Of a stretch of DNA of 64,000 bases, positions 4,924 to 22,481 are shown piece after piece. Position 1 is the first letter of the stretch. Every line of letters begins with the position of its first letter. This stretch comes from Burkholderiales bacterium. Lineage in GTDB: Bacteria; Pseudomonadota; Gammaproteobacteria; Burkholderiales; SG8-39. The position numbers and the translations under genes are program-made. The notes under the pieces are model-generated. The model saw nothing but the letters and a program-made list of their open reading frames with translations, was not told the origin of the DNA and did not search any database. Location: positions 6,851 to 70,850 of the forward strand of contig DASXAO010000138.1 of NCBI GenBank assembly GCA_036406675.1, given 5' to 3'.

Positions 4924-4980
4924 TCCCGAGATCAGGGACAGACCACGTTTCTTTTGTCCTGGCGGCCTCGTCGGCGACGA

Positions 4981-4998
4981 ATGGGACCAAGGTCCCAT
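4981..4998. repeat. short perfect palindrome ATGGGACC-AA-GGTCCCAT
   Basis: 8-bp arms read directly, in the gap between the dehydrogenase gene and the DUF2780 gene. The core GGGAC..GTCCC resembles the family-2 palindromes at 38.1 kb and 63.8 kb. Confidence 0.35.
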
Positions 4999-5054
4999 AG
5001 ATAGAGTCGCGGTGCCGCAGATACGCTAGCCGACTCATAGAAGGAGCCGACTGC

Positions 5055-5489
5055 ATGAACCGCAATCTCGCCGTTGCAGCGCTGCTAGTCTGGGCGGTCC
5101 TTCTGGCCGCCTGCTCGTCGATGGAATCGATGATGGGAATGGGGTCGAGCGCGAGCCTTCCATCCACCCTGACCAAGCAACTCGGTGTGAACGAAAGCCA
5201 GGCCGCCGGCGGAACCGGGGCGATCCTCGCGTTTGCGCAGCAAAGGCTCGCCGCCGGCGATTTCGACCTGATCGCCAAGGCGATTCCGGGCTCCGAGCAG
5301 TACCTGGGCCTGGCCAAGCAGCTGCTCGGCGGAATGAACATCAACGACAAGGCCGGACTGCAGAGCGCGTTTTCCAAGATGGGCATGAGCCCCGACATGC
5401 TGAGCAAGTTCACGCCGATCGTCACCGACTACGTCAACAAGGCGGGAGGCGCCCAGGCGGGCAGCCTGGTCGCCGGGTTGTTGAAATAG
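5055..5489 (+). CDS. DUF2780-like lipoprotein
   Basis: 144 aa with a signal peptide and lipobox (LLAAC). GAAGGAG lies upstream of the ATG. The pattern LTKQLGVNESQAAGGTGAILAFAQQRL matches my recollection of the DUF2780 family. Confidence 0.6.
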   Translation: MNRNLAVAALLVWAVLLAACSSMESMMGMGSSASLPSTLTKQLGVNESQAAGGTGAILAFAQQRLAAGDFDLIAKAIPGSEQYLGLAKQLLGGMNINDKAGLQSAFSKMGMSPDMLSKFTPIVTDYVNKAGGAQAGSLVAGLLK

Positions 5490-5492
5490 CGG

Positions 5493-6581
5493 CTATTCGC
5501 CGAGCGCGCGGTTGACGCGCGGGAGCACCTCTTCGGCCATCAGCTCCATCGACCGGCGCATCGCCTCGCGATCGGTCCAGTCGTGGCCGACGTACAGGAG
5601 CGTGCCGAACGGACCTATCACATCTCGCCAGGCGAGCAGCTTGTCGACTACCTCGTCGACCGTGCCCGCGATCAGCAGGTTCGACACCAGGTACTCGTCC
5701 GTGAGCGCCTCGTCCGGCACGGCGGGGTCATGCTTCAAGAGCGCGTTGCCGCGGGTTCTCTGCGCCTTCCTCTGTAGATTGCGGAAGTAGTAGGCGAAGG
5801 GATTGCCCGCGTCGTGCGTCATGCGACGCACGGTTGCCTTGTCGTCACCGACGAAGATGCTCTTCGCGACGCGCCAGTCCTGCGGCCGCGCAACGCGGTT
5901 CGCGCGCGCGCAGCCCTCGGCGTATTTCGGCCAGTGCGTCTTGATCACCCAGGGTTGCACGAAGTTCGCGGAGATCGGCGTCCAGCCGCGCGCGGCTGCA
6001 GCAGCGATACCGTTCGAGGCCGGCAGGATCGAAGTGACGACGATCGGCGGATGCGGCTTCTGGAAGGGCTTGAGCATCCCACCCATGCCCAGATCCGGCG
6101 CCCAGGTGCGCTCGGTGCTCAGGCGCCAGCGCTTGCCCTGCAGCCGGTAGGGCGGCTCCTGCGTCCACAGCGCGATCATGTGGTCCATCGCCTCGACGAA
6201 GATCGCGTTCCGATCCTCGTCCATCGTCTGCATCATCTCGGCGTCGGAGGGCAGCCCACCCGGCCCGACCCCGAGGATGAAGCGGCCCTCGAGCAGGGTG
6301 TCCACCATCGCGATCTCCGCCGCCGTGATCGCGGGATGGCGATTGGCCAGGTTCACCGTGCCGCTGCCGAGCTTGATGCGCCTGGTGTCGCGCGCGAGCG
6401 TGGCGATGAAGATCAGGCACGAGGTGATGGTCTCGGCGAGGTCGGTGACGTGCTCGCCGATGAACGCCTCCTCGTAGCCCAGACGCTCGGCAAGCAGCAC
6501 CGCCTCGCGGTCCTCGGCGAGGGTCTGGCGCCACTCGCGTCCGACCGCGTGCAGGGGCATCGTGAAATAGCCGAGCTTCAT
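5493..6581 (-). CDS. LLM-class (luciferase-like) flavin-dependent oxidoreductase
   Basis: 362 aa. MKLGYFTMPLH...LGYEEAFIGEH is typical of luciferase-like monooxygenases and looks like the LimB-type subgroup rather than SsuD. It starts 13 nt downstream of dctM on the same strand. Confidence 0.8.
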   Translation of the reverse strand: MKLGYFTMPLHAVGREWRQTLAEDREAVLLAERLGYEEAFIGEHVTDLAETITSCLIFIATLARDTRRIKLGSGTVNLANRHPAITAAEIAMVDTLLEGRFILGVGPGGLPSDAEMMQTMDEDRNAIFVEAMDHMIALWTQEPPYRLQGKRWRLSTERTWAPDLGMGGMLKPFQKPHPPIVVTSILPASNGIAAAAARGWTPISANFVQPWVIKTHWPKYAEGCARANRVARPQDWRVAKSIFVGDDKATVRRMTHDAGNPFAYYFRNLQRKAQRTRGNALLKHDPAVPDEALTDEYLVSNLLIAGTVDEVVDKLLAWRDVIGPFGTLLYVGHDWTDREAMRRSMELMAEEVLPRVNRALGE

Positions 6582-6594
6582 GACACTCGATTTG

Positions 6595-7914
6595 CTATTT
6601 CAGCAGCTCGGGCGCGATCAGCCTCGGCAGGATGAGCGGGATCTCCGGCCAGATGATGATCGCCGCCAGCATGAGCAGCATCGGCACCAGCATGATCACG
6701 GTGTCCTTGAGCGCGAACTTGAGCGGTACCTTCGCCACCGCGCACGAGATCATCAGGCACAGGCCGTAGGGCGGCGTCACCAGGCCGAAGGCGAGCGAGA
6801 CGATGCCGATGATCGCGAAGTGGATCGGGTGCATGTTCACCGACTGCGCGAGCGGCTGCAGGATGGTGCCGACGATGATGATCGCCGGGATCGCGTCGAG
6901 GAAGCAGCCCACCACGAGAAAGACGAAGGCGATGAAGAAGCCGACGCCGGTGATGCCCATGCCCCAGGCCGTCACGTTCGAGAGCAGCGCTTTCGGAATC
7001 TGGTAGTAGGCGAGCAGCCAGCCGAATGCGGACGCGGTGCCCACGCAGAAGAGGGCCACGGCCGACAGCCGGCCGGTCTCGAGCAGCGAGTGATAAAGCT
7101 GCTTCCAGCCCATCTCGCGGTAGAAAAAGGAGGAAAGCACCACGGCATAGAGCACCGCGATGGCGGCCGACTCCGTGGCGGTGAACCAGCCGAGCAGGAT
7201 GCCGCCGACGATGATGAACGGGGTGAAGAGCGCCGGCAGCGACTCCCACCCCGAGCGGAAGAACTCCTTGAGCGTGGCGCGCGGATAGACCGGGTAGTTG
7301 TAGATCTTCGAGTAGACATGCACGGTCGCCATCTGCGCCGCGGCGATGAGCAGCCCCGGCAGGATGCCCGCGAGGTACATGGCGCCGATCGAGGTCGAGA
7401 TCACGCCTCCCCAGACGATCATCAGGATCGAAGGCGGGATGATCACCGCGAGCACCGCCGACACTGCCGTGATGGCGATCGAGAACGAAAGGCCGTAGCC
7501 CTCCTTTACCTGCGCGTCGATGAAGATCTTCGACTGGCTGGCCGCGTCCGCGGTCGAGGAGCCCGAGATGCCGGCGAAGAACACCGACAGCAGCACGTTG
7601 ATCTGCGCCAGCGCGCCGGGAAAGTGTCCCACCATGGTGCGCGACAGCCTCACCAGGCGGTCGGTGATGCCGCCGATGTTCATCAGGTTGGCGGTGAGCA
7701 GGAAGAACGGCACCGCCAGCAGGATGAAGGAGTTGTAGGCGTTGAAAGTCTCCTGCACCAGGTTCTGCATCGAGAGCCGCTCCTCGAGGAGCATCAGTGG
7801 CAGGCAGGCGAGGCCGAGCGCGAAGGCCACCGGCACGCGCAGCACGAGGAGCACGAAAAAGACGCCGAACAGGATCAGCGCCGCGCTCGAGGGTGCGAGC
7901 AGCCCGGCGCTCAT
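6595..7914 (-). CDS. dctM: TRAP transporter large permease
   Basis: The internal ATG at 7914 gives a 439 aa polytopic protein (MSAGLLAPSSAALILFGVFF...). Its ATGA overlaps the dctQ stop. The longer 485 aa ORF has an Arg/Gly-rich non-membrane extension, which I rejected. Confidence 0.85.
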   Translation of the reverse strand: MSAGLLAPSSAALILFGVFFVLLVLRVPVAFALGLACLPLMLLEERLSMQNLVQETFNAYNSFILLAVPFFLLTANLMNIGGITDRLVRLSRTMVGHFPGALAQINVLLSVFFAGISGSSTADAASQSKIFIDAQVKEGYGLSFSIAITAVSAVLAVIIPPSILMIVWGGVISTSIGAMYLAGILPGLLIAAAQMATVHVYSKIYNYPVYPRATLKEFFRSGWESLPALFTPFIIVGGILLGWFTATESAAIAVLYAVVLSSFFYREMGWKQLYHSLLETGRLSAVALFCVGTASAFGWLLAYYQIPKALLSNVTAWGMGITGVGFFIAFVFLVVGCFLDAIPAIIIVGTILQPLAQSVNMHPIHFAIIGIVSLAFGLVTPPYGLCLMISCAVAKVPLKFALKDTVIMLVPMLLMLAAIIIWPEIPLILPRLIAPELLK

Positions 7915-8429
7915 TCCGCGGCCTTCAGGTGCGTCGCCTCGGGCTTGGGCGGCGCCCGGCCGGCGAGGACCCTCGCCGCGTCCCGCATGCGCTCGCTCTG
8001 GAACACGAGCCAGGTCAGGCCCGTGATCGGCCAGGCGACGTGGATCATCCACAGCGGCAGGTCGGCGAGCTCGGAGACGCGATTCCAGGCGAAACGCGTG
8101 AACTCCCAGCCCGCCCAGAGGAAAACGAAAGCGAAGAGCAGGATGAAGACGCCTGCCGCGAGCTGCAGCGCGGCGGTGCCCTTCGCGCCGAGCTCCGGCC
8201 AGACGTCGACTTCGAAATGCGAGCCCTCGCGCACACCGATCATCGCGCCGATCATCACCATCCAGATGAAGAGGAAGCGCGCCATTTCCTCGGTCCAGAT
8301 ATAGGCCGGGATCAGCTGCGTGTAGCGCGAAAAGATCTGCAGGCTGACCGGGACGATCAGCACCGCGACCGAGGACGCGAGCAGCCAGGACAGCAGCCGC
8401 GCGTACCAGCGCGTAATGTTCTTAAGCAA
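7911..8429 (-). CDS. dctQ: TRAP transporter small permease
   Basis: 172 aa with four hydrophobic helices and an apparent TTG start 3 nt after the dctP stop. It sits between dctP and dctM. Confidence 0.78.
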   Translation of the reverse strand: MLKNITRWYARLLSWLLASSVAVLIVPVSLQIFSRYTQLIPAYIWTEEMARFLFIWMVMIGAMIGVREGSHFEVDVWPELGAKGTAALQLAAGVFILLFAFVFLWAGWEFTRFAWNRVSELADLPLWMIHVAWPITGLTWLVFQSERMRDAARVLAGRAPPKPEATHLKAAE

Positions 8430-8432
8430 CGA

Positions 8433-9407
8433 TTACTTGATGGCGTTGATCTTGGCGTAGATCTGGTCGGCGCCGATCTCCTTCGCGTACGCCGCCATCA
8501 CCGGATCGGCGAGCTTCTTCATCTGGTCGCGGTCGGTGAACTTGACGCGCTTCAGCTTGCCCGCCTTCTCCAGCGCGACCAGCTTCGCCTCGTCCTCGCT
8601 CGACTCGAGCTTGCGGCCATAGGCGCCGGCTTCCTTGCCGGCCTTCAGGATCGCCTGCTGCATGGCCTTGTCCAATTTATTGAACGTCTTGGTCGAGAAG
8701 CAGATCGGCCGGATGGTGATCGCGTGCTGCGTGATCGAGAGCTGCGGTGCGACCTCGTAGAATTTCATCTGCTCGACACCGGCGGCCTCGTTCTCGCCGG
8801 CGGCGATGACGTTGTTCTGGATCGCGTTGTAGATCTCGTTGTAGGCGATCACGGTCGGCGCCATGCCGATGGCGGTGAAGGTCTTCGACCAGATCGGCGC
8901 GCCCTGCACGCGTACCTTGAGGCCCTTCATCTCCTTGAGGTTGCGCACCGGCTTGTTGACGAAGATGTTGCGCGTGCCGCCGCCGGCGTAGCCGATCAGC
9001 ATTACCTCGGCTTTCTGGTTGATCTCGTCGGCTACCGGCTTGAGGAGATCGGCGTCGAGCACCTTGTTCCAGTGGTCGAGGTCGCGGAACAGGAACGGCG
9101 CGTCGATGAACGGCGCCGCCTTGGAGAAGGTCGACATGTGCGCCGGCGAGACGATGCCGTAGTCGACCGCCTTGCCCTGCGCCATGTATTCGAAGTACTG
9201 CTTTTCCAGGCCGAGCTCGCTGTTCTTGTGCAGCACCCAGTTGGTCTTCTTCCCGGAATACTTGTCGGTCAGCTCCTGGAAGCGCACCAGCGCCCGCGTG
9301 AACACGTGCTCGTCGGGAAACTGCACCGCGCCGTGCAGCGTGAGCTGCGCATTCGCGTTCAGCGAGACGACGAAGCCGGCCGCGGCAAGAAGCATCCCCT
9401 TCCTCAT
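8433..9407 (-). CDS. dctP: TRAP transporter substrate-binding protein (DctP family)
   Basis: The ATG at 9407 is preceded by GGAGGAGGGGAGAT. The 324 aa protein has a signal peptide (MRKGMLLAAAGFVVSLNANA) and DctP-like sequence. Its ATGA overlaps the upstream TauD-like gene stop. Confidence 0.85.
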   Translation of the reverse strand: MRKGMLLAAAGFVVSLNANAQLTLHGAVQFPDEHVFTRALVRFQELTDKYSGKKTNWVLHKNSELGLEKQYFEYMAQGKAVDYGIVSPAHMSTFSKAAPFIDAPFLFRDLDHWNKVLDADLLKPVADEINQKAEVMLIGYAGGGTRNIFVNKPVRNLKEMKGLKVRVQGAPIWSKTFTAIGMAPTVIAYNEIYNAIQNNVIAAGENEAAGVEQMKFYEVAPQLSITQHAITIRPICFSTKTFNKLDKAMQQAILKAGKEAGAYGRKLESSEDEAKLVALEKAGKLKRVKFTDRDQMKKLADPVMAAYAKEIGADQIYAKINAIK

Positions 9408-10231
9408 GATCTCCCCTCCTCCTTGATGGTGATGCGCCACAGTGTACGCGGATCGTTCGGGTCGGTGAGCGTCGCCGAGTGCAGGAGCGAGGCGTTGTCC
9501 CAGATCACCATGTCGCCCTTGCCGTACCTGAGGCGGAGCTGATACTTCTCCTGCGTGGCATGGCGCTTGAGCTCGTCGAGCAGGTCGAGCGCCTCGTCCT
9601 GCGGCATGCCCTCGATGCCGAACGAGCTTCCCGACACCGAATACAGGGCGGTGCGCCCGGTGATTGGATGCCTGCGCGCAAGTTTGTGCCTGACCCATTT
9701 CATCTTCCCCTCCTGCTCTTCGGTCAGCACCGAGGCCACCGTGCGAGAGGACGCGTCGAGATCGTCTCGGTTGCCGTAGTGATGCAACGCAACAAGATCC
9801 CGGATCCTGGCTTTGAGGGAAGAGGGAAGATCGTCATAGGCGGCGTACTGGTCCGCGAACAGCGTGTCGCCGCCCTTTTTCGGTACCTCGATCGAATAGA
9901 GCAGCGTCGCGCGCGCCGGCACGTCGAGGTACGAATAGTCGGTGTGGAAGTAGGTGCCGGCGTCGGCCAGGCCGATCGGCTCTCCGTTCTTCTTGCGGTT
10001 GGAGAGGATGAGGATGTCCGCGTGCTCGGGATGATGGAACTGGTCGATGACGTGCGGCTCGGGCCTGCCGAATTGCTTTGCAAACCCGAGAAAACCACCG
10101 GGTGTGAACTTCTGATTGCGGAGGACCAGCACCTGAGAAGCGAAGAACGCGTCCCGGACCTCGCCAAAATCCGGCGGGATCTCGTCGGACTCGGCGCCGA
10201 AGCCGGCGCCCAGTTTTCTCAGACGCATCAT
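9404..10231 (-). CDS. TauD/TfdA family Fe(II)/2-oxoglutarate dioxygenase
   Basis: 275 aa from MMRLRK. The facial triad is visible: HTD in GTYFHTDYSY, a distal His in NASLLHSAT, and Arg in RTLWRITI. ATGA overlaps occur at both ends. Confidence 0.8.
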   Translation of the reverse strand: MMRLRKLGAGFGAESDEIPPDFGEVRDAFFASQVLVLRNQKFTPGGFLGFAKQFGRPEPHVIDQFHHPEHADILILSNRKKNGEPIGLADAGTYFHTDYSYLDVPARATLLYSIEVPKKGGDTLFADQYAAYDDLPSSLKARIRDLVALHHYGNRDDLDASSRTVASVLTEEQEGKMKWVRHKLARRHPITGRTALYSVSGSSFGIEGMPQDEALDLLDELKRHATQEKYQLRLRYGKGDMVIWDNASLLHSATLTDPNDPRTLWRITIKEEGRS

Positions 10232-11388
10232 GGCTTGATCTTCGGCACGTCGAGCCACTTCCGCAGCCTCCAGCTCTTCAGCCCGAGCTCGGCGAGCTGC
10301 ACGCCCTTCGCGCCCTCGAGCAGGTTCCAGCGGAAGGCACCTTCGTCGGCGACGTGCTTCAGGAAAAGCTCCCACTGCGCCTTGAAGGCGTTGTCGTAGC
10401 CTTCGTCCGCCATTTCCTCCCAGCCGTTGAAGAAGTCGATCGGCTGGGGAATGTCCGGGTTCCAGACCGGCTTGGGGGTCGCTTCATAGCTTTGAAAAAA
10501 GCACTTGCGCAAGCCGGCCACGGCGCTCCCCTTCGTGCCATCGACCTGGAGAGTGAGCAGATCGTCCCGCCGCACACGCACGTCCCACGAGGAGTTGAAG
10601 TGCGCCACCACGCCGCCCGCGAGCTGGAAAGTGGCGTACGCGGCATCGTCGGCAGTCGCCTTGTACTTCTTGCCGTTCTCGTCCCAGCGGTGCGGGATGT
10701 GCGTGGCGCCAAGACAGCTCACGGCCTGCACCTCGCCGAAGAGGTTGTCGAGAACGTAGCGCCAGTGGCACAGCATGTCGAGGATGATGCCGCCGCCGTC
10801 CTGCTTGCGGTAGTTCCACGAGGGCCGCTGGGCGGCGGGTTGTCCTTGCTCGCGATCTCCCTCGAACACCCAGTAGCCGAACTCGCCGCGAACCGACAGC
10901 ATGCGCCCGAAGAATCCCCGCTCCTTGAGCTTGCGCAGCTTCAACAGCCCGGGCAGCCACAGCTTGTCCTGCACGACGCCGTGTCTCACCTTCGCCTTCT
11001 TTGCGGCGGCGTAGAGTCCCTTCGCCTCGGCGAGCGTAGTGGAGACGGGCTTCTCGCAATAGATGTGCTTGCCGGCTGCGATCGCCTTTTTCAGCAACTT
11101 GGGGCGCAGCTGTGTCGATGCCGCGTCGAAGAAGACTTGGTCGTCCGTGTTCTTCAAGGCTGAATCGAGATCGTTCGTCCAGCGCTCGACGCCATGCTCC
11201 CTTGCCAATGCCTCGACCTTCGCCGCGTTGCGTCCGACAAGCAAGGGATCGGGCATGAGACGCGTGCCGTCCTTCAACGCCACGCCGCCCTGCCTGCGGA
11301 TCTCGAGGATCGACCGGATGAGGTGCTGGTTCATGCCCATGCGGCCGGTGACGCCGTGCATGATCACGCCGATGCGCTTCTCGCTCAC
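10228..11388 (-). CDS. Gfo/Idh/MocA family oxidoreductase
   Basis: The GTG at 11388 is preceded by GAGGAGGGG and gives 386 aa. It has an N-terminal Rossmann region (IGVIMHGVTGRMG) and a conserved EKP motif (HIYCEKP). Confidence 0.8.
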   Translation of the reverse strand: MSEKRIGVIMHGVTGRMGMNQHLIRSILEIRRQGGVALKDGTRLMPDPLLVGRNAAKVEALAREHGVERWTNDLDSALKNTDDQVFFDAASTQLRPKLLKKAIAAGKHIYCEKPVSTTLAEAKGLYAAAKKAKVRHGVVQDKLWLPGLLKLRKLKERGFFGRMLSVRGEFGYWVFEGDREQGQPAAQRPSWNYRKQDGGGIILDMLCHWRYVLDNLFGEVQAVSCLGATHIPHRWDENGKKYKATADDAAYATFQLAGGVVAHFNSSWDVRVRRDDLLTLQVDGTKGSAVAGLRKCFFQSYEATPKPVWNPDIPQPIDFFNGWEEMADEGYDNAFKAQWELFLKHVADEGAFRWNLLEGAKGVQLAELGLKSWRLRKWLDVPKIKP

Positions 11389-11402
11389 TCCGACGCCCCT
11401 CC

Positions 11403-12236
11403 TCAGGCGTCCAGCGCTTCCAGGATCCCGCGAATGTAGCCGATGGCGCGCGCCGCGGCACCGGGACCATCGGGCACGTAGTCGAACGGCTCGACGGCCA
11501 CGTCTCCCGCATAGCCGTGCCGCTTCAACGCGGCGAACACCGGCGCGAAGCGCTGCTCGCCCTGGCCGGGGCCGCGGCGGTTGCGGTCGTTCACCTGGAC
11601 GTGGGCAATGACGCCTTTCGGCAGCCAGCGCTCGAGCAGCGCGCCGAGGGGCTCCTTCTCCATGCGTCCCGCGGAGCTGCAGTCGAGCATCGTCTTCAGC
11701 GCGGGGTTGGAGATCTCGGCCACGATCTGCGCCGCCTCCTCCAGCGTGTTGACGAGCGGCGTCTGCTCCGACGACAGCGGCTCGACGCAGTACACCACGC
11801 CCGCTTTCTGCGCGCGCTCGGCAGCCACGGCGAAGCACTCCTTCGCGCGGGAGAGCGCCGCGGCGCGCGTTTCGCCGGCCTCGATGCGCCGCTGCTGGGG
11901 CGAGCCGTGCACCAGGTACCTTCCGCCCAACGCCGCGCACAGGTCGATGAGCGAGCGCATCACGTCCACGGTCCTCTTTCGGACCGCGTCATCCTTGCTG
12001 CAGATCGAGAGGCCGGCCGGCTTGACGAGGAGCCAGTGCAGGCCGGTCACCGCGATGCCGCTGTCTTCGGCGGCGCTGCGCGCCGCGGCAATCTGGGCGG
12101 AGCCCATGCGGTGCGGGTCCTCGGAGAGGGTATAGGGGGCGATCTCGAGCCCGTCGTAGCCGAGCTTCGCCGCGTATTCGCACTGCCGCGGAAACGGCAT
12201 CGGCGCGATCACCTCGTTGCACAGCGCGATGCGCAC
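11403..12236 (-). CDS. sugar phosphate isomerase/epimerase (xylose isomerase-like TIM barrel)
   Basis: 277 aa. MRIALCNEVI...LGYDGLEIAP is typical of the AP-endonuclease-2/xylose-isomerase-like TIM barrel family. Confidence 0.8.
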   Translation of the reverse strand: MRIALCNEVIAPMPFPRQCEYAAKLGYDGLEIAPYTLSEDPHRMGSAQIAAARSAAEDSGIAVTGLHWLLVKPAGLSICSKDDAVRKRTVDVMRSLIDLCAALGGRYLVHGSPQQRRIEAGETRAAALSRAKECFAVAAERAQKAGVVYCVEPLSSEQTPLVNTLEEAAQIVAEISNPALKTMLDCSSAGRMEKEPLGALLERWLPKGVIAHVQVNDRNRRGPGQGEQRFAPVFAALKRHGYAGDVAVEPFDYVPDGPGAAARAIGYIRGILEALDA

Positions 12237-12262
12237 GCGCTAGCTCCCCGCCGCCGGTCCGC

Positions 12263-13228
12263 TCAGTCGGCGTACACGCCGCTCTTCCGGATGATCGGCG
12301 CCCACTTCTCGACCTCCGCCTTGAGCAGCGTGCCCAGGGAGCCCGGCGTCGCCTTGGAGGGCGGGACCGGCTCGGCGCCGAGATCCGCGAGGCGCGCCCG
12401 GAAGGCCGGCGCCTGCACCGCGGTCTGCAGCGCCGCGACGAGCTTGTCGAGCGCCGGCTTCGGGATGCCCTTGGGTGCGAAGAGGCCGTTCCACACCACC
12501 AGGTCGAAGCCTTTCAGCCCTTGCTCGTCGAGCGTGGGTAGATTGGGAAACGACGCGATGCGCGTAGCCGTGGTGACGCCGTAGGCCTTCACGTTCCCCG
12601 ACTTGATCTGCGGCACGGTGTTGGTGGTCTGGTCGCACATGAAATCGACTTGCCCGCCGACCAGGTCGTTCATCGCCGGGCCGGTGCCCTTGTACGGCAC
12701 CTGGGTGAAGTCCGCCTGGACCGCGCTCATGAAGAGCAGCCCGCAAAGGTACGACGCCGAGCCGACGCCGGCGTTGGCGTAGCTGACCTTGTCCTTGTTC
12801 GCTTTTGCGTAGGCGAGGAATTCGGGAAAGTTGGCCGCCGGCGTGGCCTTCTTCGCGATCAGCATCATCGGCACGTCGGCCACCTGGCCGACGTAGTCGA
12901 AGTCCTTGAGCGTGTCGTATTGGAGCTTGCGGTACAGCGTCGGCGCCGTCGCCATGCCGATGTGGTAGAGGAGCAGCGTGTAGCCGTCGGCGCGCGCCTT
13001 CGCCGCCCTGGTGACGCCGATCGTGCCGCCGGCGCCGCCGGCGTTCTCGACGATCATCTGCTGCTTGAGCGCCTCGCCCATCGACCCCGCGAGGACCCGC
13101 GTGAGGGTGTCGGTCGGCCCCCCCGCCGCCGCCGGCACGATGATCACCACCGGCTTGGCGGGATAGTCCTGCGCGGCCGCTGCGCCGCTCGCGAGAAATA
13201 AAAAAAACGCGGCTCCGATCCGCTTCAT
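12263..13228 (-). CDS. Bug family (TctC-like) tripartite tricarboxylate transporter substrate-binding protein
   Basis: 321 aa with a signal peptide and motifs YPAKPVVIIVPAAAGGPTD and VENAGGAGGTIG. Confidence 0.85.
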   Translation of the reverse strand: MKRIGAAFFLFLASGAAAAQDYPAKPVVIIVPAAAGGPTDTLTRVLAGSMGEALKQQMIVENAGGAGGTIGVTRAAKARADGYTLLLYHIGMATAPTLYRKLQYDTLKDFDYVGQVADVPMMLIAKKATPAANFPEFLAYAKANKDKVSYANAGVGSASYLCGLLFMSAVQADFTQVPYKGTGPAMNDLVGGQVDFMCDQTTNTVPQIKSGNVKAYGVTTATRIASFPNLPTLDEQGLKGFDLVVWNGLFAPKGIPKPALDKLVAALQTAVQAPAFRARLADLGAEPVPPSKATPGSLGTLLKAEVEKWAPIIRKSGVYAD

Positions 13229-13240
13229 TCGTCGTTCCTC

Positions 13241-14212
13241 CTAGTCGTTTGCCTTGATTCCTGCCTGCTTGATCACTCTTGCCCAGCGCGGCGTCTCGCG
13301 CTCGATCGCGGCCGCGAACTGCGCCGGCGTGCCGCCGATCACGTCGAGGCCGAGGTCGTTCATTTTCCTGCGCACGTCCGGCTGGGCGAGCAGCTTGACC
13401 GTATCGCGATGCAGCCGCTCGACGATCGCGCGCGGCGTTCCGGCCGGCGCCATCAGGCCGAACCACGGCACGGCTTCGAACCCGGGATAACCGGATTCGG
13501 CCATCGTGGGAAGCTCGGGTGCGACGCCCGAGCGGCTGGCGGACGTGACCGCGAAAGCGCGCAGCTTCCCTTCGCGCACGAGCGGCACCACGTTCACCAC
13601 GTTGGCGAACGAGAGGCTGACGCGGCCGGCCAGCAGATCGGGCAGGAGCGCCGTGGTGCCGCGATACGCGACCGGGCGGATATCGATGCCGGCCATGGAC
13701 CTGAAGAGCTCCGCGGCGAGGTGCTGCGAAGTTCCGACGCCGGCGTGCGCGTAGCTGAGCGTGCCCGGCTGCGCGCGCGCCAGCGCGACGAGCTCCGGCA
13801 GCGTCGCCGCCGGAGAGCCGCTCGGCACGACCAGCACGTTTGCGGCGACGAAGATCTGCGAGATCGGCGCCAGGTCCTTGACCGGATCGAAGCTCAGCTT
13901 GTCGTACAGGCTCGGGCTGAAAACCAGCGAGCTGTTGCCGATCATGCCGAGCGTGTACCCGTTCGGCGGCGACTTGGCGAGGCGGTCGGTGGCGATGTTG
14001 CCGCCGGCCCCGGTGACGTTCTCGACCACCACCGCCTTGCCCCACGCGGTGCCGAGCCTCTCCGCGAGCAGTCGAGCGGTCACGTCGGGCGCGACGCCGG
14101 CCGTGAAGCCCACGAGAATGCGCACCGGCTGCTCGGGATAGCCGCCCTGAGCGGCCGCGTGTGCGGCAGCCGCCGCGATCCACAGCCCGGCTACTAGACG
14201 GCCGATCCCCAT
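13241..14212 (-). CDS. Bug family (TctC-like) substrate-binding protein, second copy
   Basis: The internal ATG at 14212 gives 323 aa (MGIGRLVAGLWIAAAAAHA...). Motifs are YPEQPVRILVGFTAG and VENVTGAGGNIA. Confidence 0.85.
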   Translation of the reverse strand: MGIGRLVAGLWIAAAAAHAAAQGGYPEQPVRILVGFTAGVAPDVTARLLAERLGTAWGKAVVVENVTGAGGNIATDRLAKSPPNGYTLGMIGNSSLVFSPSLYDKLSFDPVKDLAPISQIFVAANVLVVPSGSPAATLPELVALARAQPGTLSYAHAGVGTSQHLAAELFRSMAGIDIRPVAYRGTTALLPDLLAGRVSLSFANVVNVVPLVREGKLRAFAVTSASRSGVAPELPTMAESGYPGFEAVPWFGLMAPAGTPRAIVERLHRDTVKLLAQPDVRRKMNDLGLDVIGGTPAQFAAAIERETPRWARVIKQAGIKAND

Positions 14213-14604
14213 GCTTGCTGCCAGTCGTTGCCCAGGAAGTCGGTGACCCGGCCGTCGCGCTGGAAGAACTTGTTCGGGATCTGGAACATGGCGAGGAACA
14301 CGCCGCCCTGCGGGCCCGCCCAGGCCTCGTGGCGGCTGCCCGCCGGACGCCAGACGAATTGGCCTGCTTTGCAAATACCTTCCCCGCAGTGCAATTCGCC
14401 GTCCAAGACATATGTCTGCTCGATCTTCACGTGCTCGTGGTCCGGCAGGCGCGCACCGGGCGCCATGCGCATCAGGGCGGTAATGAGGCCGGTCTGCTTG
14501 TCGACGAGCAGCGTCTTCTGCTCGATGCCCGAGTAGGCCGTTTTTTCCCACGGCAGGTTTTCCACGTCGACAAATCTGGAAGCGAGATCAACGCGCCGGT
14601 TCAT
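14194..14604 (-). CDS. ChrR-like cupin domain protein
   Basis: 136 aa from the ATG at 14604, at the tail of the 14194..15849 frame. The cupin His cluster is LPDHEHVKIEQTYVLDGEL...RHEAW. Its ATGA overlaps the pyk stop, and its 3' end overlaps the Bug gene start by 19 nt. Confidence 0.65.
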   Translation of the reverse strand: MNRRVDLASRFVDVENLPWEKTAYSGIEQKTLLVDKQTGLITALMRMAPGARLPDHEHVKIEQTYVLDGELHCGEGICKAGQFVWRPAGSRHEAWAGPQGGVFLAMFQIPNKFFQRDGRVTDFLGNDWQQAWGSAV

Positions 14605-16043
14605 GATTTCAGGTGCTCCCCGACCTTTACGATCTTCATGGTGTTGGTCCCGCCCGACTTGCCGATGGGTTCGCCGATGGTGAGGACGATGATGTCGCCC
14701 TCCTTCACCACCCCGCTCGCCACCAGCGTCTTTTCGGCCTCGTGCAGCAGCTCTTCGCGGTCGTGCCCGACGTACTTGACCATCAGCGGATAGACGTCGC
14801 GTAAGAGCGCGCAGCGGTAGCGCGTCGTCGTCTGCGAGGTGAGCGCGTAGATCGGCACGCCGCAGTTGAGACGGCTCATCCACAGCGCGGTCGAGCCCGA
14901 TTCGGTCAGCGAGGCGATGCACTTCACCTTGAGGTGGTAGGCAGTGAAGAGCGCCGCCATCGCGATCGACTGGTCGACCCGCGTGAACACCCGGTTGAGG
15001 AAGTCCTGCTCGAGGTTGAGCGGCTGGGTCTGCTCCACCTCCACGCACACGCGGTGCATCGCCTCGATCACTTCCACCGGATAGCGTCCGCTCGCGGTCT
15101 CGGCCGAGAGCATCACGGCGTCGGTGCCGTCGAGCACCGCGTTCGCCACGTCCGACACCTCGGCGCGCGTGGGCACCGGGCTCGCGATCATCGACTCCAT
15201 CATCTGCGTGGCGGTGATCGTGAGCTTGTTCTGCTCGCGCGCGAGCCGGATCATCTTCTTCTGCAGCGCGGGCACCGAGGCGTCGCCGACCTCCACCGCG
15301 AGGTCGCCGCGCGCCACCATGATGCAGTCCGAGCCGCGCATGATGTCGAGCAGCGCCGCCTCGGCCACCGCCTCGGCGCGCTCGATCTTGGCGATCAGGA
15401 AGGCCTTGCCGCCCGCCGCGCGCAGCAGCTCGCGCGCCATGTACATGTCGGCGCCGCTCTTCGGGAAGGACACCGCGAGGTAGTCGGCCTGCATCTTCGC
15501 GGCCGTCTTGATGTCTTCCATGTCCTTCGAGGTGAGCGCGGGCGCGGTGAGTCCACCGCCCTGGCGGTTGATGCCCTTGTTGTTGGAGAGCACGCCGCCG
15601 TGGCGCACCACGGTCTGCACCTCGTCGCCGCGCACCTCGGTGACGTCGAGCACGATCTTGCCGTCGTCGAGGAGGAGCACCGCGCCGGGGCCCACGTCGC
15701 GCGGCAGCTCCTTGTAGTCGAGCCCGACGCGCTCCGCGTCGCCCGGTGCGCTCGACGCCGCATCGAGCACGAAGCGCCGGCCCTTCTCGAGGGTCACCCG
15801 GCCCTCCTTGAACTTGCCGACGCGGATCTTGGGCCCCTGCAGGTCGCACATGATCGCCACGGTGCGCCCCACCTTGGAGGCGATCTCCTTCACCAGCGCG
15901 GCGCGCGAAAGATGATCCTCGGTGGTGCCGTGGGAAAAATTGAGGCGCACCACGTCCAGGCCGGCGCGCACCATCCTTTCCAGGACTGCCGGTTCCGACG
16001 ACGCCGGGCCGAGCGTCGCGACGATCTTGGTGGCACGGTACAT
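14601..16043 (-). CDS. pyk: pyruvate kinase
   Basis: 480 aa. MYRATKIVATLGPAS...RLNFSHG...MVARGDLAVE is an unambiguous pyruvate kinase sequence. Confidence 0.93.
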   Translation of the reverse strand: MYRATKIVATLGPASSEPAVLERMVRAGLDVVRLNFSHGTTEDHLSRAALVKEIASKVGRTVAIMCDLQGPKIRVGKFKEGRVTLEKGRRFVLDAASSAPGDAERVGLDYKELPRDVGPGAVLLLDDGKIVLDVTEVRGDEVQTVVRHGGVLSNNKGINRQGGGLTAPALTSKDMEDIKTAAKMQADYLAVSFPKSGADMYMARELLRAAGGKAFLIAKIERAEAVAEAALLDIMRGSDCIMVARGDLAVEVGDASVPALQKKMIRLAREQNKLTITATQMMESMIASPVPTRAEVSDVANAVLDGTDAVMLSAETASGRYPVEVIEAMHRVCVEVEQTQPLNLEQDFLNRVFTRVDQSIAMAALFTAYHLKVKCIASLTESGSTALWMSRLNCGVPIYALTSQTTTRYRCALLRDVYPLMVKYVGHDREELLHEAEKTLVASGVVKEGDIIVLTIGEPIGKSGGTNTMKIVKVGEHLKS

Positions 16044-16073
16044 AGCGCTACTCAGTGTAGCAAATAGGATGCC

Positions 16074-16784
16074 TCAGACTTTTCGCGCCGCGTCGCGGCG
16101 CTGAAACAGCACCCAGCTCGTGGCGATGTACTTGTCGCCGCCCTTCGGCATGTTGCCGCGGTGCGTGTGGGTGAAGGCGGTCGGAGCGATGAGGAGCGAG
16201 CCGGTCCGGGGCACGACCTTGCGCTGCTGGTACAGGAACTCGGTTTCGCCTTCGCGGAAGTCGTCGTTGAGATAGATCGTCCACAGCACGACCCGGTGCA
16301 GCGACTCCGCCCGATCCTCCTGGTCCGGGTGCAGCTCGCAATGCCAGTACGGGTAGGCGCCGCTGTCGGCGAAATACTTCTGCAGGTTGATGGTCCCCGG
16401 ACGGAAGAGGTTCATCACCACCGCATTGAGCAGGTCGTCCGCGAGCCCGGCGAAGGCCGCCGCATCGAGCGTGACCGGCGGGCCTCCCCCTGGCGGCGTG
16501 AGCTGGAAGCGCGAAGTCGCGAGCGCCACGTGCGCGTAGCGCCTGAGATAACGCTTGAAGCCGCCAAGCACGGCGTCGACCAATAGCTGCTGCGCGTCCG
16601 CCCAGCCCGGGTGCTCGTTCAGGTGAATATCCCAGCTATCCTTGACCGAGACGTCGACACCGCCGCCGGTCAGCCCGCGCCGCGCAAGGCCGCTCGCCTC
16701 GAAACGCTCGATCAGCGCACGGCAGGCGTCTGCCTCGAGTGCGTTGTCGTAGACCTCGATGAAGTCCACAGGATCGTCGCCCAT
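16074..16784 (-). CDS. putative 2OG-Fe(II) oxygenase family protein
   Basis: 236 aa from the ATG at 16784. HxD (ELHPD) and a distal His (FTHTHRG) are consistent with a double-stranded beta-helix oxygenase. The family assignment is from memory. Confidence 0.55.
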   Translation of the reverse strand: MGDDPVDFIEVYDNALEADACRALIERFEASGLARRGLTGGGVDVSVKDSWDIHLNEHPGWADAQQLLVDAVLGGFKRYLRRYAHVALATSRFQLTPPGGGPPVTLDAAAFAGLADDLLNAVVMNLFRPGTINLQKYFADSGAYPYWHCELHPDQEDRAESLHRVVLWTIYLNDDFREGETEFLYQQRKVVPRTGSLLIAPTAFTHTHRGNMPKGGDKYIATSWVLFQRRDAARKV

Positions 16785-16804
16785 CTTGGGGACTAGTATG
16801 CTGG

Positions 16805-17204
16805 CTAGTCGCCGATGTGCAACACCAGCTCGCGCACCGATCCGCGGCGGCGGTGCTCCCAGAGATAAATTCCCTGCCACGTGCCGAGCGCAAGCTTCTC
16901 ATTCTCGATGGGAATCGAGAGCGACGTCGCCGTGAGCGCCGCTCGGATGTGAGCGGGCATGTCGTCGGGCCCCTCGGTGTCGTGCGTGTAGAACGGATCG
17001 CCCTCCGGCACGAGCCGCGCGATCCAGCGCTCGAGGTCGCGCTTCGCCGACGGGTCGGCGTTCTCCTGGATGACGAGGCTCGCCGAGGTATGCCGCACAA
17101 AAATCGTGCACAGCCCTTCCTCGATCCCGGAGTTTCTTACTTGCGATTGGACGCTGGCGGTAATTTCGTAAAGACCCTGTCCGCGCGTTTCGACGCTGAA
17201 CTGC

Positions 17205-17212
<8 letters not shown>
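16805..17212 (-). CDS. yjbQ: YjbQ/UPF0047 family protein (secondary thiamine-phosphate synthase-like)
   Basis: 135 aa. [17 protein letters not shown]...[15 protein letters not shown]...[12 protein letters not shown] is typical of YjbQ. It overlaps the pgk 3' end by 8 nt. Confidence 0.8.
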
Positions 17213-18365
<1,153 letters not shown>

Positions 18366-18366
18366 C

Positions 18367-19377
18367 TCAGCGCACGTTCGCGAACGCGACCGCCACGTCG
18401 AGCATGCGGTTGGAGAAGCCCCACTCGTTGTCGTACCACGAGGACACCTTCACCAGCGTGCCGTCGGACACGCGCGTCAGGCTCGAGTCGAAGATGGAGC
18501 TCGCCGGGTTGTGGTTGAAGTCGGAGGACACCAGCGGCTCCGAGTTGTACTCGAGGATGCCCTTGAGGTCGGAGTTGCACGCCTGCTTGACCGCGTTGTT
18601 CACCTCGTCAACGGTGGTCGGCTTCTTCGCCACGAAGGTGAGATCGACGATCGACACGTTGATGGTCGGTACCCGGATCGAGTAGCCGTCGAGCTTGCCG
18701 TTGAGATGGGGCAGCACCAGGCCCACCGCGGCGGCGGCGCCGGTCTTGGTGGGAATCATGTTCTCCACGGCCGAGCGGGCGCGGCGCAGATCCTTGTGAA
18801 ATACGTCGGTCAGGACCTGGTCGTTGGTGAACGAGTGGATGGTGTTCATGAGGCCGCAGGCGACGCCGATGCGGTCGTCGATCGCCTTCACCAGCGGCGC
18901 GAGGCAGTTCGTAGTGCAGGACGCGTTTGAAATGACGGTATCGCTTCCTTTGAGCGAAGCGTGGTTGACGCCGTAGACCACCGTGCGGTCGACGTCCTTC
19001 TCGCCGGGGGCGGAAATGATGACTTTTTTCGCCCCGGCATGGACGTGAGCGCCGGCCTTCGCCTTGCTGGTGAAAAGGCCGGTGCACTCCATGACGAGGT
19101 CGACCCCGAGCGCCTTCCACGGCAGCTTGGCCGGGTCGCGCTCCGCCACCACCTTGATGCGATCGTCGTTGACCACGATGCTGTCGCCGTCGACGCGCAC
19201 GGCGGACGGGAAGCGCCCGTGCGCGGTGTCGTACTGCAGCAGGTGGGCGTTGGTCTTCGCGTCGCCCAGGTCGTTGATCGCGACGAACTGCAGGCCGTGC
19301 TTCTTGCCGCTCTCATAGTGGGCCCGCAGCACCATGCGTCCGATGCGTCCAAAACCGTTGATGGCTACCTTGATCAT
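18367..19377 (-). CDS. gap: type I glyceraldehyde-3-phosphate dehydrogenase
   Basis: 336 aa from [14 protein letters not shown] with the active site [12 protein letters not shown]. Its ATGA overlaps the tkt stop. Confidence 0.93.
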
Positions 19378-21419
19378 CCGAATAGACTCCTTACGGCCTC
19401 GGCCACGCGCTCGGGCGTGAAGCCGAAGTGCTTGAAAAGCTCGCCCGCCGGGGCGGACTCGCCGAAACGGTCGATCCCGACCACCCTGCCCTCGAGGCCG
19501 ACGTATTTCCTCCAATAGTCGGTCACGCCCGCTTCGACCGCTACCTTTGGGAGCTCCCGGGGCAGGACCGAGTTCCTGTAATCGGCGTCCTGGCGGTCGA
19601 AAAGGCTGGTCGAGGGCATCGACACCACGCGCACCGGCAGCCCCGCGTCGGCGAGCAACTTTTGCGCCCCCAGAGCGAGCGGCACTTCCGAGCCGGTGGC
19701 GATGATGACCGCTCGCGCCTCCGGCGCGTCGGACAGGACGTAGCCGCCCCGCTCGATCCCCGACAGGGTCGTCCTCTTGGAGAAAGCGACGTTCTGCCGG
19801 CTCAGGAGGAGCGCGGTGGGACCGTCCTTGCGCCGCAGGGCCGCCGCCCAGGCGATCGCGGTCTCGACCGTGTCCGCGGGCCGCCAGACGTCCATGTTGG
19901 GGATCAGCCGCAGGGTCGAGGCATGCTCGATCGGCTGGTGGGTGGGCCCGTCCTCGCCCAAGCCGATCGAATCGTGGGTGAACACGTAGACGACGCGGAT
20001 CTTCATCAGCGCCGCCATCCGCAGCGCGTTGCGCGCATAGTCCGAGAACACCAGGAAGGTGCCCCCGTAGGGAATGAAGCCGCCGTGCAGCGCGATGCCG
20101 TTCATCACCGCGCACATGCCGAATTCCCGCACCCCGTAAAAGACGTGGTTTCCGGCCTCGGCGTTGCCCGGCGCCACCGCCTTCGAAGCCTTGACCATGG
20201 TCAGGTTCGAGCCCGTCAGGTCGGCCGAGCCGCCGAGGAGCTCCGGCAGCAGCGGAACCAGGACTTCGAGCACGTTTTGCGACGCCTTGCGCGTCGCGAG
20301 GGTCTCGCCCTTGGAATTGAGCTCCTCGATAAGCGACGCCAGGCGGCTGTCGAACTCCGGCGGCAAGGCCGTGGCGACGCGGCGCTGGAATTCCGCCGCC
20401 TCCTCCGGGAACTGCTTTTGGTAGGACGAGGCCACCTTGGCCCATTTCTTCTCGGCCTTCTTCCCGGCTTCGCGCGCGTCCCAGCCGGCGCGAACGGCTT
20501 CGGGAATCTCGAAGGGCGGGTACGGCCAGCCGATCGCGGCGCGGGTGGCGGCGACCTCGTCGGCACCCAGGGCGGAGCCGTGCGCCGCGCCCGTGTTGGC
20601 CTTCTTGGGGGCTCCTTTTGCGATGACCGTCTTGCAGCAGATGAGCGTCGGGCGGCCCTTCGAGCGCTTACTTTCCCTTTTGGCCTTGCGGATGGCCCGG
20701 TCGACCGCTTCCACGTCGTGCCCGTCGACGTTCGGGATGACCTGCCAGCCGTACGCGGCGAAGCGCTTGGGCACGTCGTCGGTGTACCACTGCGCGATTT
20801 GGCCCTTGTCCGAGTCGATCGAGATGCCGTTGTCGTCGTAAAAGGCGACGAGCTTGCCAAGGCCAAGGGTTCCGGCGAGGGAAGCAGCCTCGTGAGAGAT
20901 GCCTTCCATCATGCAGCCGTCGCCCATGAACACGTAGGTGTGATGCTCGACCAGGTCGAAGCCGGGACGGTTGAACCGCGCGGCGAGGAGCCGCTCGGAC
21001 AGCGCCATGCCGACCGCGTTGGCGAAGCCCTGCCCCAAGGGCCCGGTGGTCGTCTCTACGCCGGGCGCGTACCCGTACTCCGGATGCCCGGGGGTTTTGG
21101 AGCCAAGCTGGCGAAAACGCTTCAGCTCCTCGATCGGAAGGGCGTAGCCGGTGAGGTGGAGCAGGCTGTAAAGGAGCATCGAGCCGTGGCCGTTGGAGAC
21201 CACGAAGCGGTCGCGGTTCGGCCAGGCGGGGTTGGCGGGGTTGTGGCGCAGATGGCGGTGCCACAGGGCCACGGCGATCTCGGCCATGCCCATCGGCATG
21301 CCGGGATGGCCGGACTTGGCCGCCTCCACCGCATCCATGGCAAGCGCCCGGATGGAGTTGGCAAGGTCGACGTCGGAAGCGGCCGTGGTTGCCGTATTTG
21401 TCGTAACCGGGGATTCCAT
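19374..21419 (-). CDS. tkt: transketolase
   Basis: 681 aa from the ATG at 21419. Motifs are [17 protein letters not shown] and [16 protein letters not shown]. Confidence 0.93.
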
Positions 21420-21462
21420 CGGAGGGCGCAAATTATACTCAGCGCATCGCGCCCTTCCTCCT

Positions 21463-22368
21463 ATGAGCGAACTTCCCTTTGCCCGGCCGCCGAATTTCGA
21501 GCACTGCGTCGCCTGCGCAACGCCCGGCGAAGCGCATTGGTTTGTCTTCCGCGGCGACCAGATCCTCGTGGAGATGGGCCCGCTGGAGGTGCCCTCCGAC
21601 GACTTGCGCGTGCGCGCTCGCCCGGCGTGGGCGCGCCTTCCGTTGCAGAAAAGCCACGACTGGCTGGCCGGCAGGGCGCTTCGCACGCTGTATCTCGGCG
21701 TGCTGAATGGCACGCAATGCTGGGCCGCCGAGCTGCCCAGAGAAGCCGAGCCGCCCGCCGGGATGTCGTGGGAGGGCCTGAGGACGCTCTTCAGCGTGCT
21801 CGACGACGCGCATTTCGCCCTCGCCGGCCGGGCGCTGCAGCTCGTGGACTGGGACCGCACGCACCAGTTCTGCGGTCGCTGCGGCGCGCGCACCGAGCCG
21901 CATCCCGAGGAGCGCGTGCGGGTCTGCCCTGCCTGCAAGCTCTCGGCCTACCCGAGAGTGGCACCGGCAGTTATGGCGCTGGTCTGGCGCGGCTCGGAGA
22001 TCCTGCTCGCCCGCAGCCCGCACTTCCCGCCCGGCATGTACAGCGCGCTCGCCGGCTTCGTCGAGCCCGGCGAGTCGCTCGAGCAGTGCATCGCTCGCGA
22101 GGTGGCCGAGGAGGTCGCAGTGCAGGTGGCGCGACCGCGGTACGTGGCGAGCCAATCGTGGCCGTTTCCACATTCGATGATGATCGCGTTCGCGTGCGAG
22201 TGGGTGAGCGGCGAGATTCGTCGGCAGGAGTCGGAAATCGAGGAAGCAAAGTGGTTCGAAGTCTTGCAATTACCGAGACTTCCAAGCAAAATCTCGATCG
22301 CTCGAAGATTGATCGACAGTGAGGTTGCACGAATGATCGAGCAGAGCAAAGGCACAACCGGCGTTTAG
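21463..22368 (+). CDS. nudC: NAD(+) diphosphatase (NADH pyrophosphatase)
   Basis: 301 aa from the ATG at 21463. It has a zinc ribbon (CGRCG...CPAC) and a Nudix box ([23 protein letters not shown]). Confidence 0.85.
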
Positions 22369-22481
22369 GAGGTTTTGAACGAGTTGAGCGCGATCGAGAG
22401 CGCTGTGTGCGCCGCAAGGCGCGGATCGAAGGCGAGGCTCCCTACGCGGGCTTCGCCTTCGCATTTTGGAGGGCATGGGAA

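Follow-up and report, generated by a model that had tools for sequence, protein, structure and literature searches.

This work concerns a string of 16 genes on the minus strand of an uncultured soil Burkholderiales bacterium, found at positions 5493 to 21419 of a 64,000-nucleotide stretch of contig DASXAO010000138.1 (GenBank assembly GCA_036406675.1), the whole of which we refer to as the window. The string joins genes of central carbon metabolism (tkt, gap, pgk and pyk) to a cupin gene and to genes for periplasmic receptors, a transporter and several enzymes. An original prediction, made from the letters of the sequence, presented these genes as one joined block. Our analysis bears out a block that is real, tight and evolutionarily retained; it does not bear out an undivided operon, since a conserved -10 element lies before pyk. 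We favor, with a little better than even confidence, an organization into two tandem, partly nested transcription units, the first running from tkt to a 2-oxoglutarate (2OG) oxygenase-like gene and the second from pyk to a luciferase-like (LLM) oxidoreductase gene, with read-through between them.

Relatives of the string were collected in two ways. Scanning species-representative genomes with the Pyk protein gave 80 loci, the closest of which belong to uncultured Burkholderiales metagenome-assembled genomes (MAGs; L001 to L008 in our numbering of loci, Pyk 83-87% identical), and scanning metagenomes with the cupin gave 80 soil contigs at 78-97% identity. The analysis of mosaic structure used synteny over 87 related loci.

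Gene arrangement and predicted promoters

Genes were fixed by codon-position GC, start-codon context and Pfam matches; the open reading frame (ORF) lists of the window, whose G+C content is about 66%, are crowded with spurious frames. The string consists of the following genes, in the order of transcription:

19374..21419, minus strand: tkt, transketolase, 681 aa (Pfam Transketolase_N, Transket_pyr and Transketolase_C; start identical in the Joint Genome Institute, JGI, call)
18367..19377, minus strand: gap, glyceraldehyde-3-phosphate dehydrogenase, 336 aa (Pfam Gp_dh_N and Gp_dh_C; ATGA overlap with tkt)
17205..18365, minus strand: pgk, phosphoglycerate kinase, 386 aa (Pfam PGK)
16805..17212, minus strand: yjbQ (UPF0047), 135 aa (Pfam UPF0047, NCBIfam TIGR00149; 8-nt overlap with pgk)
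16074..16784, minus strand: 2OG-Fe(II) oxygenase-like gene, 236 aa, or 231 aa from the GTG at 16769 (Pfam 2OG-FeII_Oxy_3)
14601..16043, minus strand: pyk, pyruvate kinase, 480 aa (Pfam PK and PK_C)
14194..14604, minus strand: ChrR-like single-domain cupin, 136 aa (Pfam Cupin_7; ATGA overlap with pyk)
13241..14212, minus strand: Bug1, TctC-family periplasmic receptor, 323 aa (Pfam TctC; 19-nt overlap with the cupin)
12263..13228, minus strand: Bug2, TctC-family receptor, 321 aa (Pfam TctC)
11403..12236, minus strand: xylose-isomerase-like TIM-barrel enzyme (TIM), 277 aa (Pfam AP_endonuc_2)
10228..11388, minus strand: Gfo/Idh/MocA oxidoreductase (Gfo), 386 aa (identified by Pfam)
9404..10231, minus strand: TauD/TfdA-family Fe(II)/2OG dioxygenase (TauD), 275 aa (Pfam TauD)
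8433..9407, minus strand: dctP, solute-binding subunit of a transporter of the tripartite ATP-independent periplasmic (TRAP) type, 324 aa; 320 aa as called by JGI (Pfam DctP)
7911..8429, minus strand: dctQ, TRAP small membrane subunit (Pfam DctQ)
6595..7914, minus strand: dctM, TRAP large membrane subunit (Pfam DctM)
5493..6581, minus strand: LLM oxidoreductase, 362 aa, the final gene of the string (Pfam Bac_luciferase)

All 16 identities and their minus-strand order had been called in the original prediction and were reproduced by Pfam, and no opposite-strand gene lies between them. The predicted lengths of the 15 junctions from tkt to LLM (-4, +1, -8, +20, +30, -4, -19, +12, +26, +14, -4, -4, +3, -4 and +13 nt) were also exact, and 15 of the 16 genes have identical starts in the independent JGI gene calls for L081 and L082, two metagenome contigs that match the block exactly. 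The sole difference is dctP, called four codons shorter by JGI, which changes the TauD-dctP junction from -4 to +8. The start of the 2OG oxygenase-like gene is ambiguous, as relatives use a GTG equivalent to window position 16769 and the gap to yjbQ would then be +35 in place of +20; with either start, every gap in the string is of 35 nt or less. The block holds no regulator gene among its Pfam-annotated genes.

The junctions of the block are free of terminator-like hairpins, as had been claimed. A terminator pattern scan of positions 4000-23500 gave no more matches than shuffled sequence, a hairpin-plus-T-tract scan gave no match in any gap of the block, and the energies of the best hairpins at the junctions, -8 to -21 kcal/mol, are within the range of coding sequence (background -17.6 +/- 3.7 kcal/mol).

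For the promoters we counted a -10 signature wherever a TAnnnT hexamer agreed with TATAAT at 4 or more of its 6 positions and ended 4-22 nt before a start codon. In the window this signature precedes 10 of the 22 genes that head a unit and 2 of the 38 internal genes, one of which is pyk, over a background of about 1%. The two elements on which our model is built are:

21432..21437, minus strand: TATAAT, -10 box of the predicted tkt promoter, 12 nt before the tkt ATG, in the divergent gap with nudC
16054..16062, minus strand: TGCTACACT, extended -10 promoter-like element, 10 nt before the pyk ATG, inside the 30-nt gap between the 2OG oxygenase-like gene and pyk

Among the minus-strand hexamers of the block, the first alone agrees with the -10 consensus at 5 or more of 6 positions, and (T/G)ATAAT occupies the equivalent place before tkt in L001-L006 and L010. 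The second belongs to a pattern, TGNTANANT, that has two matches in the window, both just 5' of start codons, one of them being that of pyk. Among relatives, TTTGCTACACTG precedes pyk in L001, L084-L087, L091 and L107, and the variants TAAACT, TAGAAT, TACACT and TAAGGT hold its place in most other loci, with any upstream gene; the motif is kept behind a different upstream gene or one of the opposite strand (L001, L003, L005, L007). The full -10 signature is present before tkt in 6 of 6 related loci and before pyk in 17 of 27, and in 0-5% of loci for gap, pgk, yjbQ, the cupin, Bug1, Bug2, Gfo and dctPQM. Higher proportions on small counts were obtained for TauD (1/11), LLM (1/3) and TIM (5/30).

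From the position and conservation of these elements we infer that both fire. The tkt box would drive tkt-gap-pgk-yjbQ-2OG, and the pyk element would drive an 11-gene unit, pyk-cupin-Bug1-Bug2-TIM-Gfo-TauD-dctPQM-LLM, in both cases with a very short leader. Because no terminator-like structure separates the units, transcripts from the tkt promoter would probably read through into the second. Within the units, the overlapping or near-abutting stop and start codons (ATGA, -8, -19 and +1) would allow translational coupling. The array itself would have been built by compaction of separate units onto an ancestral betaproteobacterial tkt-gap-pgk-pyk cluster. The block resembles the complex nested or tandem operons known from other bacteria in its co-directional, overlapping genes, the lack of a terminator and an internal promoter-like element; it differs from them in that the internal promoter is known from motif position and conservation alone.

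The competing picture closest to the original prediction is a single 16-gene polycistronic operon transcribed from the tkt promoter only, with obligatory co-expression and translational coupling of its glycolytic and accessory genes. Co-directional genes at short spacing, hairpin-free junctions, the strong conserved TATAAT before tkt (itself motif evidence) and the retention of the whole order at 87-91% nucleotide identity would all fit such an operon. We consider it quite improbable, given that the -10 element before pyk, at the level of motif an internal promoter of the kind that the original prediction named as refuting it, is conserved even where the upstream gene is unrelated or on the opposite strand, that gene content varies between pgk and pyk and again after the cupin, and that the module from TIM to dctM follows an opposite-strand gene in some relatives, three of which have a -10 box for the module itself.

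Several observations weigh against the two-unit reading as well. The evidence for promoters throughout is motif position and conservation only. The pyk hexamer, TACACT, has only 4 of 6 consensus matches and no -35 element; a sigma-70 scan of positions 4000-23500, which is blind to extended -10 promoters, found nothing above shuffled sequence and nothing at pyk; and TGNTANANT is not enriched overall in the window (2 found, 2.25 expected), so only its positions are informative. Before pyk, 10 of the 27 relatives fail the strict -10 criterion, many of them with TAAGGT-type boxes or mis-called starts. Further promoters may be buried in upstream coding sequence, for example before Bug1, TIM, dctP or LLM. 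The terminator scans address hairpins, and Rho-dependent termination is beyond their reach. Lastly, tight spacing is weak evidence of co-transcription in a compact genome that is 96% coding.

Two further promoter candidates were rejected. A TACACT that lies 35 nt before dctP, within the 3' end of TauD, is weak as a dctPQM promoter; it encodes R-T-L-W and is replaced by the synonymous CGCACGCTG in L113, L115, L118, L150 and L156. A CATACT before the ATG of the 2OG oxygenase-like gene has no comparative support, L084, L086 and L091 lacking that sequence.

The unit-heading genes of the window often have a -10 box only 6-20 nt before the start codon, usually with no Shine-Dalgarno sequence (for example at 30507-30530, 38919-39830, 48054-48073, 58375-58392 and 63375-63395). 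This close spacing suggests leaderless or very short-leader mRNAs, and the pattern is of practical use when transcription units are to be called in uncultured genomes of this kind.

Conservation and mosaic structure of the block

The complete 16-gene order was recovered in four diverged contigs, L084 and L085, with 91.4% of nucleotides identical over 16 kb, and L086 and L087, with about 87% (87.4% for L087), and separate JGI samples yielded independent assemblies of the block (L081 and L082, 99.9-100% identical). Since the full order is kept at 91.4% and about 87% nucleotide identity, the string is no artefact of assembly and did not arise very recently. An artefact of assembly or binning, or a very recent rearrangement, had to be considered because the source appears to be uncultured, to judge by its exact matches among JGI metagenome contigs and by MAGs as its closest genomes; beyond the identical and the collinear contigs, the sub-arrangements of the block that many contigs share at about 80% identity and the uniform GC content across the window leave this explanation extremely improbable.

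Across relatives the block is divided into recurrent units: tkt-gap-pgk, with or without yjbQ; a variable slot; pyk-cupin; 0-2 Bug genes; TIM-Gfo-TauD-dctPQM; and an optional LLM gene. Within the first unit, the tkt-gap junction is -4 in 18 of 24 relatives and the pgk-yjbQ overlap, which the original prediction proposed to check by synteny, is -8 in 10 of 15. The slot between pgk and pyk may hold nothing, yjbQ, yjbQ with the 2OG oxygenase, yjbQ with a MaoC-like gene, an unknown gene (246 aa), or opposite-strand thioredoxin and methyltransferase genes, and the 2OG oxygenase occurs there only in L084-L087, L091 and L106. Counted by the gene immediately 5' of pyk, there are 12 loci with pgk, 7 with yjbQ, 5 with the 2OG oxygenase, 20 with other genes and 1 with an opposite-strand gene. 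The position 3' of the cupin is also variable: it is taken by a Bug gene in 21 loci, by TIM or Gfo directly in 17, by another same-strand gene in 26 and by an opposite-strand gene in 13. The number of Bug genes between the cupin and TIM is 0, 1 or 2 according to the relative, Bug1 being present in only some of them, and LLM follows dctM only in L085, L119 and L150, its place being taken elsewhere by other or opposite-strand genes.

The unit TIM-Gfo-TauD-dctPQM is well conserved, with -4 overlaps between most of its members and the dctPQM order kept, and it stands behind an opposite-strand gene in L002, L158, L161 and L003. When TIM follows an opposite-strand gene it has a clear -10 box, TATAAT in L158, GATAAT in L161 and TATATT in L003; when it follows a same-strand cupin or Bug2, only 4 of 26 loci pass the strict -10 count and the upstream sequence is mostly Shine-Dalgarno-like. 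L004 has TATGAT before TIM though the preceding gene is on the same strand. Judged by this gene order, the module behaves as an autonomous unit and not, as the original prediction would have it, as an integral part of a glycolytic operon, and the block reads as a compacted mosaic of smaller units rather than an ancestral 16-gene operon. Since the -10 box of TIM appears mainly where TIM heads a unit, its distribution mostly fits read-through from pyk in arrangements like that of the window.

A mosaic of this kind could also be explained by four or more independent units that lie head to tail through genome compactness only, with promoters in the 3' ends of upstream genes and no regulatory meaning. 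The window is indeed compact: 21 of the 29 same-strand junctions outside the block (72%) are also of 30 nt or less, and 5 of the 8 convergent gene pairs, including the one at the 3' end of the block, overlap or are at most 6 nt apart. Because same-strand and most convergent junctions are nearly spacerless in this genome, hairpin-free gaps are weak evidence here. The unit boundaries in relatives fall exactly at cupin/Bug, Bug/TIM and dctM/LLM, and the lack of a regulator gene in the block points the same way, as does L162, where TauD is deleted (around 2300-2370 of that contig) and its last approximately 45 nt, including the dctP Shine-Dalgarno sequence and TACACT, are kept between Gfo and dctP. 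The independent-unit explanation has more difficulty with the near absence of close -10 hexamers before the cupin, Bug1, Bug2, Gfo and dctPQM (0-5%), with their low counts before TIM after a same-strand gene and before LLM, and with a TIM box that is clear mainly where TIM heads its unit. The TACACT inside TauD looks driven by coding constraint, being lost at synonymous sites in several relatives, and the full gene order persists over species-level divergence. We regard independent units as possible but doubtful, and prefer the two-unit model. The run of 16 tightly packed genes exceeds in part what chance would give, the next longest tight runs of the window having 6, 5, 4 and 4 genes.

The pyk-cupin pair at the usual position of fba

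The order and orientation of tkt, gap, pgk and pyk in the block are those of a well-known central-carbon or cbb-type cluster of Betaproteobacteria, which in Methyloversatilis universalis FAM5 appears as (fbp-prk-)tkt-gap-pgk-pyk-fba in consecutive locus tags (PMC5023235). The tkt/gap and gap/pgk joins are tight, as in that cluster. The window differs in several respects: pgk is not followed directly by pyk, as yjbQ and the 2OG oxygenase-like gene lie between them; a cupin gene overlapping pyk occupies the position of fba and is followed by transporter and oxidoreductase genes; and a divergent nudC-like gene lies 5' of tkt in place of cbb genes or cbbR. The block is a fairly ordinary compound operon, and none of our findings overturns current understanding.

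The original prediction expected that fba would follow pyk in related bacteria, and this expectation held. Among the 80 Pyk loci, pgk is 5' of pyk in 69 and fba is 3' of pyk in about 57 (class II in about 53, class I in 4), directly adjacent in 44 by a tally of the listed distances. Searching the 64-kb window by tblastn with the class I (L009) and class II (L012) FBA proteins gave no match anywhere. The same substitution is seen in the closest genomes: none of L001-L008 has fba after pyk, 7 of the 8 have the cupin there, and L007 has an opposite-strand gene. We found no cupin after pyk in the distant fba-lacking loci L011, L016 and L068, a blastp search with the window cupin giving nothing in L011 and L068; from size alone, our guess is that the genes after pyk in these three are purE, purK and purC.

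The most constant feature of the whole arrangement is the junction between pyk and the cupin. The predicted ATGA overlap is genuine, and the -4 overlap is present in 64 of 75 loci (GTGA replaces ATGA in L003); three exceptions that we inspected (L004, L005 and L008) have a short spacer with a Shine-Dalgarno sequence in place of the overlap. The cupin had been counted among the accessory-module genes, a grouping that we abandon, as it stays beside pyk also in loci that lack the module or have an opposite-strand gene next. Gene order over these loci indicates that throughout the clade pyk has the cupin as its fixed partner, at the position held by fba in most Betaproteobacteria. In the literature that we searched we found neither a pairing of pyk with a cupin nor a description of a cupin and accessory units at the usual position of fba. 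With its many representatives among soil metagenome contigs, the pair is the most worthwhile lead of this study, offering an uncharacterized protein candidate linked to central carbon metabolism.

The annotation source names the cupin as a ChrR anti-sigma factor, an assignment that we rejected. TIGR02451 matched only at model positions 100-208 of 216, with 31 bits relative to a cut-off of 124.5; by Pfam the protein has the cupin domain only and no N-terminal zinc-binding anti-sigma domain; no extracytoplasmic function sigma factor gene lies beside it, its neighbors being pyk and a TctC receptor. The residues H56, H58, E62 and H92 are invariant in the alignment and are positioned like cupin metal ligands. 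The AlphaFold2 model of the protein (pLDDT 89) has its best fold matches, at TM scores of 0.6-0.75, among the small metal-dependent cupins Dke1 (3bal; putative 2o1q), 2,4'-dihydroxyacetophenone dioxygenase (DAD, 5bpx) and KdgF (5fpx, 7zyc), which share the same single barrel. The cupin is probably a metal-dependent enzyme. Its sequence is only 14-27% identical to Dke1, DAD and KdgF, and the likeness of fold leaves the substrate unassigned. We know of no link between any of these three and pyruvate kinase, and a BLASTP search for homologues returned only close relatives (at least 78% identical) with generic names and no functional lead.

A more ambitious reading, which we consider unlikely, would combine these elements. 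Pyk and the Dke1/DAD-like cupin would form a dedicated, translationally coupled unit of one abundant uncultured clade of soil Burkholderiales at the ancestral position of fba; the cupin would be a new enzyme or modulator acting on enol or dicarbonyl metabolites related to pyruvate kinase, and the pyk promoter would give an 11-gene read-through transcript that ties the uptake and oxidation of a carboxylated sugar, possibly uronate-like, to lower glycolysis with no dedicated regulator. If the two-promoter model is true, the uptake and oxidation module would be expressed as a downstream extension of pyruvate kinase, whereas catabolic modules are more usually controlled by a regulator of their own, and the block would illustrate, in a modest way, that the control of accessory metabolism can be rewired by compaction.

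The accessory module and the surroundings of the block

The module encodes a complete TRAP set, DctP, DctQ and DctM together, and in this it is like other TRAP transporters associated with catabolic genes. The closest PDB entries to DctP are 4nx1 and 4ovp (E 1e-97), entries for a Sulfitobacter solute-binding protein solved with the uronate ligands D-taluronate and D-mannuronate. A difference is that in the window genes for a TauD-family dioxygenase and an LLM oxidoreductase accompany the transporter. The closest solved structure to Gfo is 3oqb (E 7e-171), deposited only as 'Oxidoreductase', and the TIM barrel has a distant match to ketose 3-epimerases. The TauD-family protein scores 134.7 bits with the taurine dioxygenase equivalog, whose cut-off is 313, and falls below all NCBIfam equivalog cut-offs; its PDB matches are ScoE and TauD, at about 1e-37, and we assign it by sequence to the TauD/TfdA superfamily and to nothing narrower. 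No TctA or TctB was found in the block by Pfam, despite two TctC genes, and Bug1 and Bug2 are orphan Bug-type receptors and not parts of a TctABC system. A reasonable label for the module is the import and the oxidation or isomerization of a putative carboxylated sugar-like substrate. A literature search for DUF993, 4NX1, 4OVP and 3OQB gave nothing usable.

Either or both of two further genes, absent from the window, belong to the module in L002, L139, L151 and L160: an enolase-superfamily gene (MR_MLE_C) between TIM and Gfo and a DUF993 gene between Gfo and TauD (14097-15452 and 16594-17769 in L002).

The string is bounded by two genes of the opposite strand:

5055..5489, plus strand: DUF2780 protein, convergent downstream neighbor and 3' boundary of the string (Pfam DUF2780)
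21463..22368, plus strand: NudC-like NADH pyrophosphatase, divergent upstream neighbor and 5' boundary (Pfam NUDIX, NUDIX-like and Zn_ribbon_NUD)

Read directly, the LLM stop (5493) and the DUF2780 stop (5489) are 3 nt apart, with no space for a terminator. At the other end, tkt and the NudC-like gene diverge from a 43-nt gap (21420-21462); its one AT-rich core, TATAAT in the minus-strand reading and TATACT in the plus-strand reading, may provide overlapping, face-to-face -10 boxes for both genes. In many relatives an opposite-strand gene of 291-305 aa adjoins tkt. Other relatives have different genes upstream of tkt. A class II fba-like gene was found by tblastn just 5' of tkt in L003, L004 and L107, L107 having only that gene. 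The regions upstream of tkt (22-5508 in L003, 145-3907 in L004, 1269-5721 in L006 and 1241-2287 in L107) hold, in some of these loci, ORFs sized like a Calvin-cycle set; in L003 and L006 there are ORFs of 465-478 aa and 102-120 aa, followed by others of about 240, 355 and 294 aa. Their size and order suggest that the unannotated ORFs 5' of tkt in L003, L004 and L006 are cbb genes.

Upstream of the string, the NudC-like gene is followed on the plus strand by a single ORF (22407-23741) that combines S-adenosylmethionine decarboxylase and spermidine synthase domains, a SpeD-SpeE fusion, with a strong canonical terminator at about 23760-23795 on its 3' side. Beyond the 3' end of the string, another closely packed set of genes for sugar-type catabolism (8-4923, plus strand) converges on the block and encodes two ATP-binding cassette (ABC) permeases, a MalK-type ATPase, an Amidohydro_2 enzyme and a 3-hydroxyisobutyrate-dehydrogenase-like enzyme.

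The claim that conspicuous palindromes separate unrelated or convergent genes elsewhere in the window stands in part: several sites carry them, and the majority of the convergent pairs have no room for one, as given above. Terminators or palindromes were located at about 23787, 37792, 38109-38171, 58395 and 63831-63863, of which the hairpin-plus-T-tract scan identified those at about 23787, 37792 and 58395, along with one at 38177, as canonical terminators. A window-wide inverted-repeat search was uninformative, GC-rich coding palindromes dominating its output, and Rfam and tRNA scans of the window gave no match. One palindrome, AATAGGGAC-n-GTCCCTATT with flanking A and T runs, has three intergenic copies (38109-38127, 38153-38171 and 63838-63856), two of them in tandem between one convergent gene pair, and it looks like a bidirectional terminator or a small repetitive extragenic palindromic (REP)-like element.

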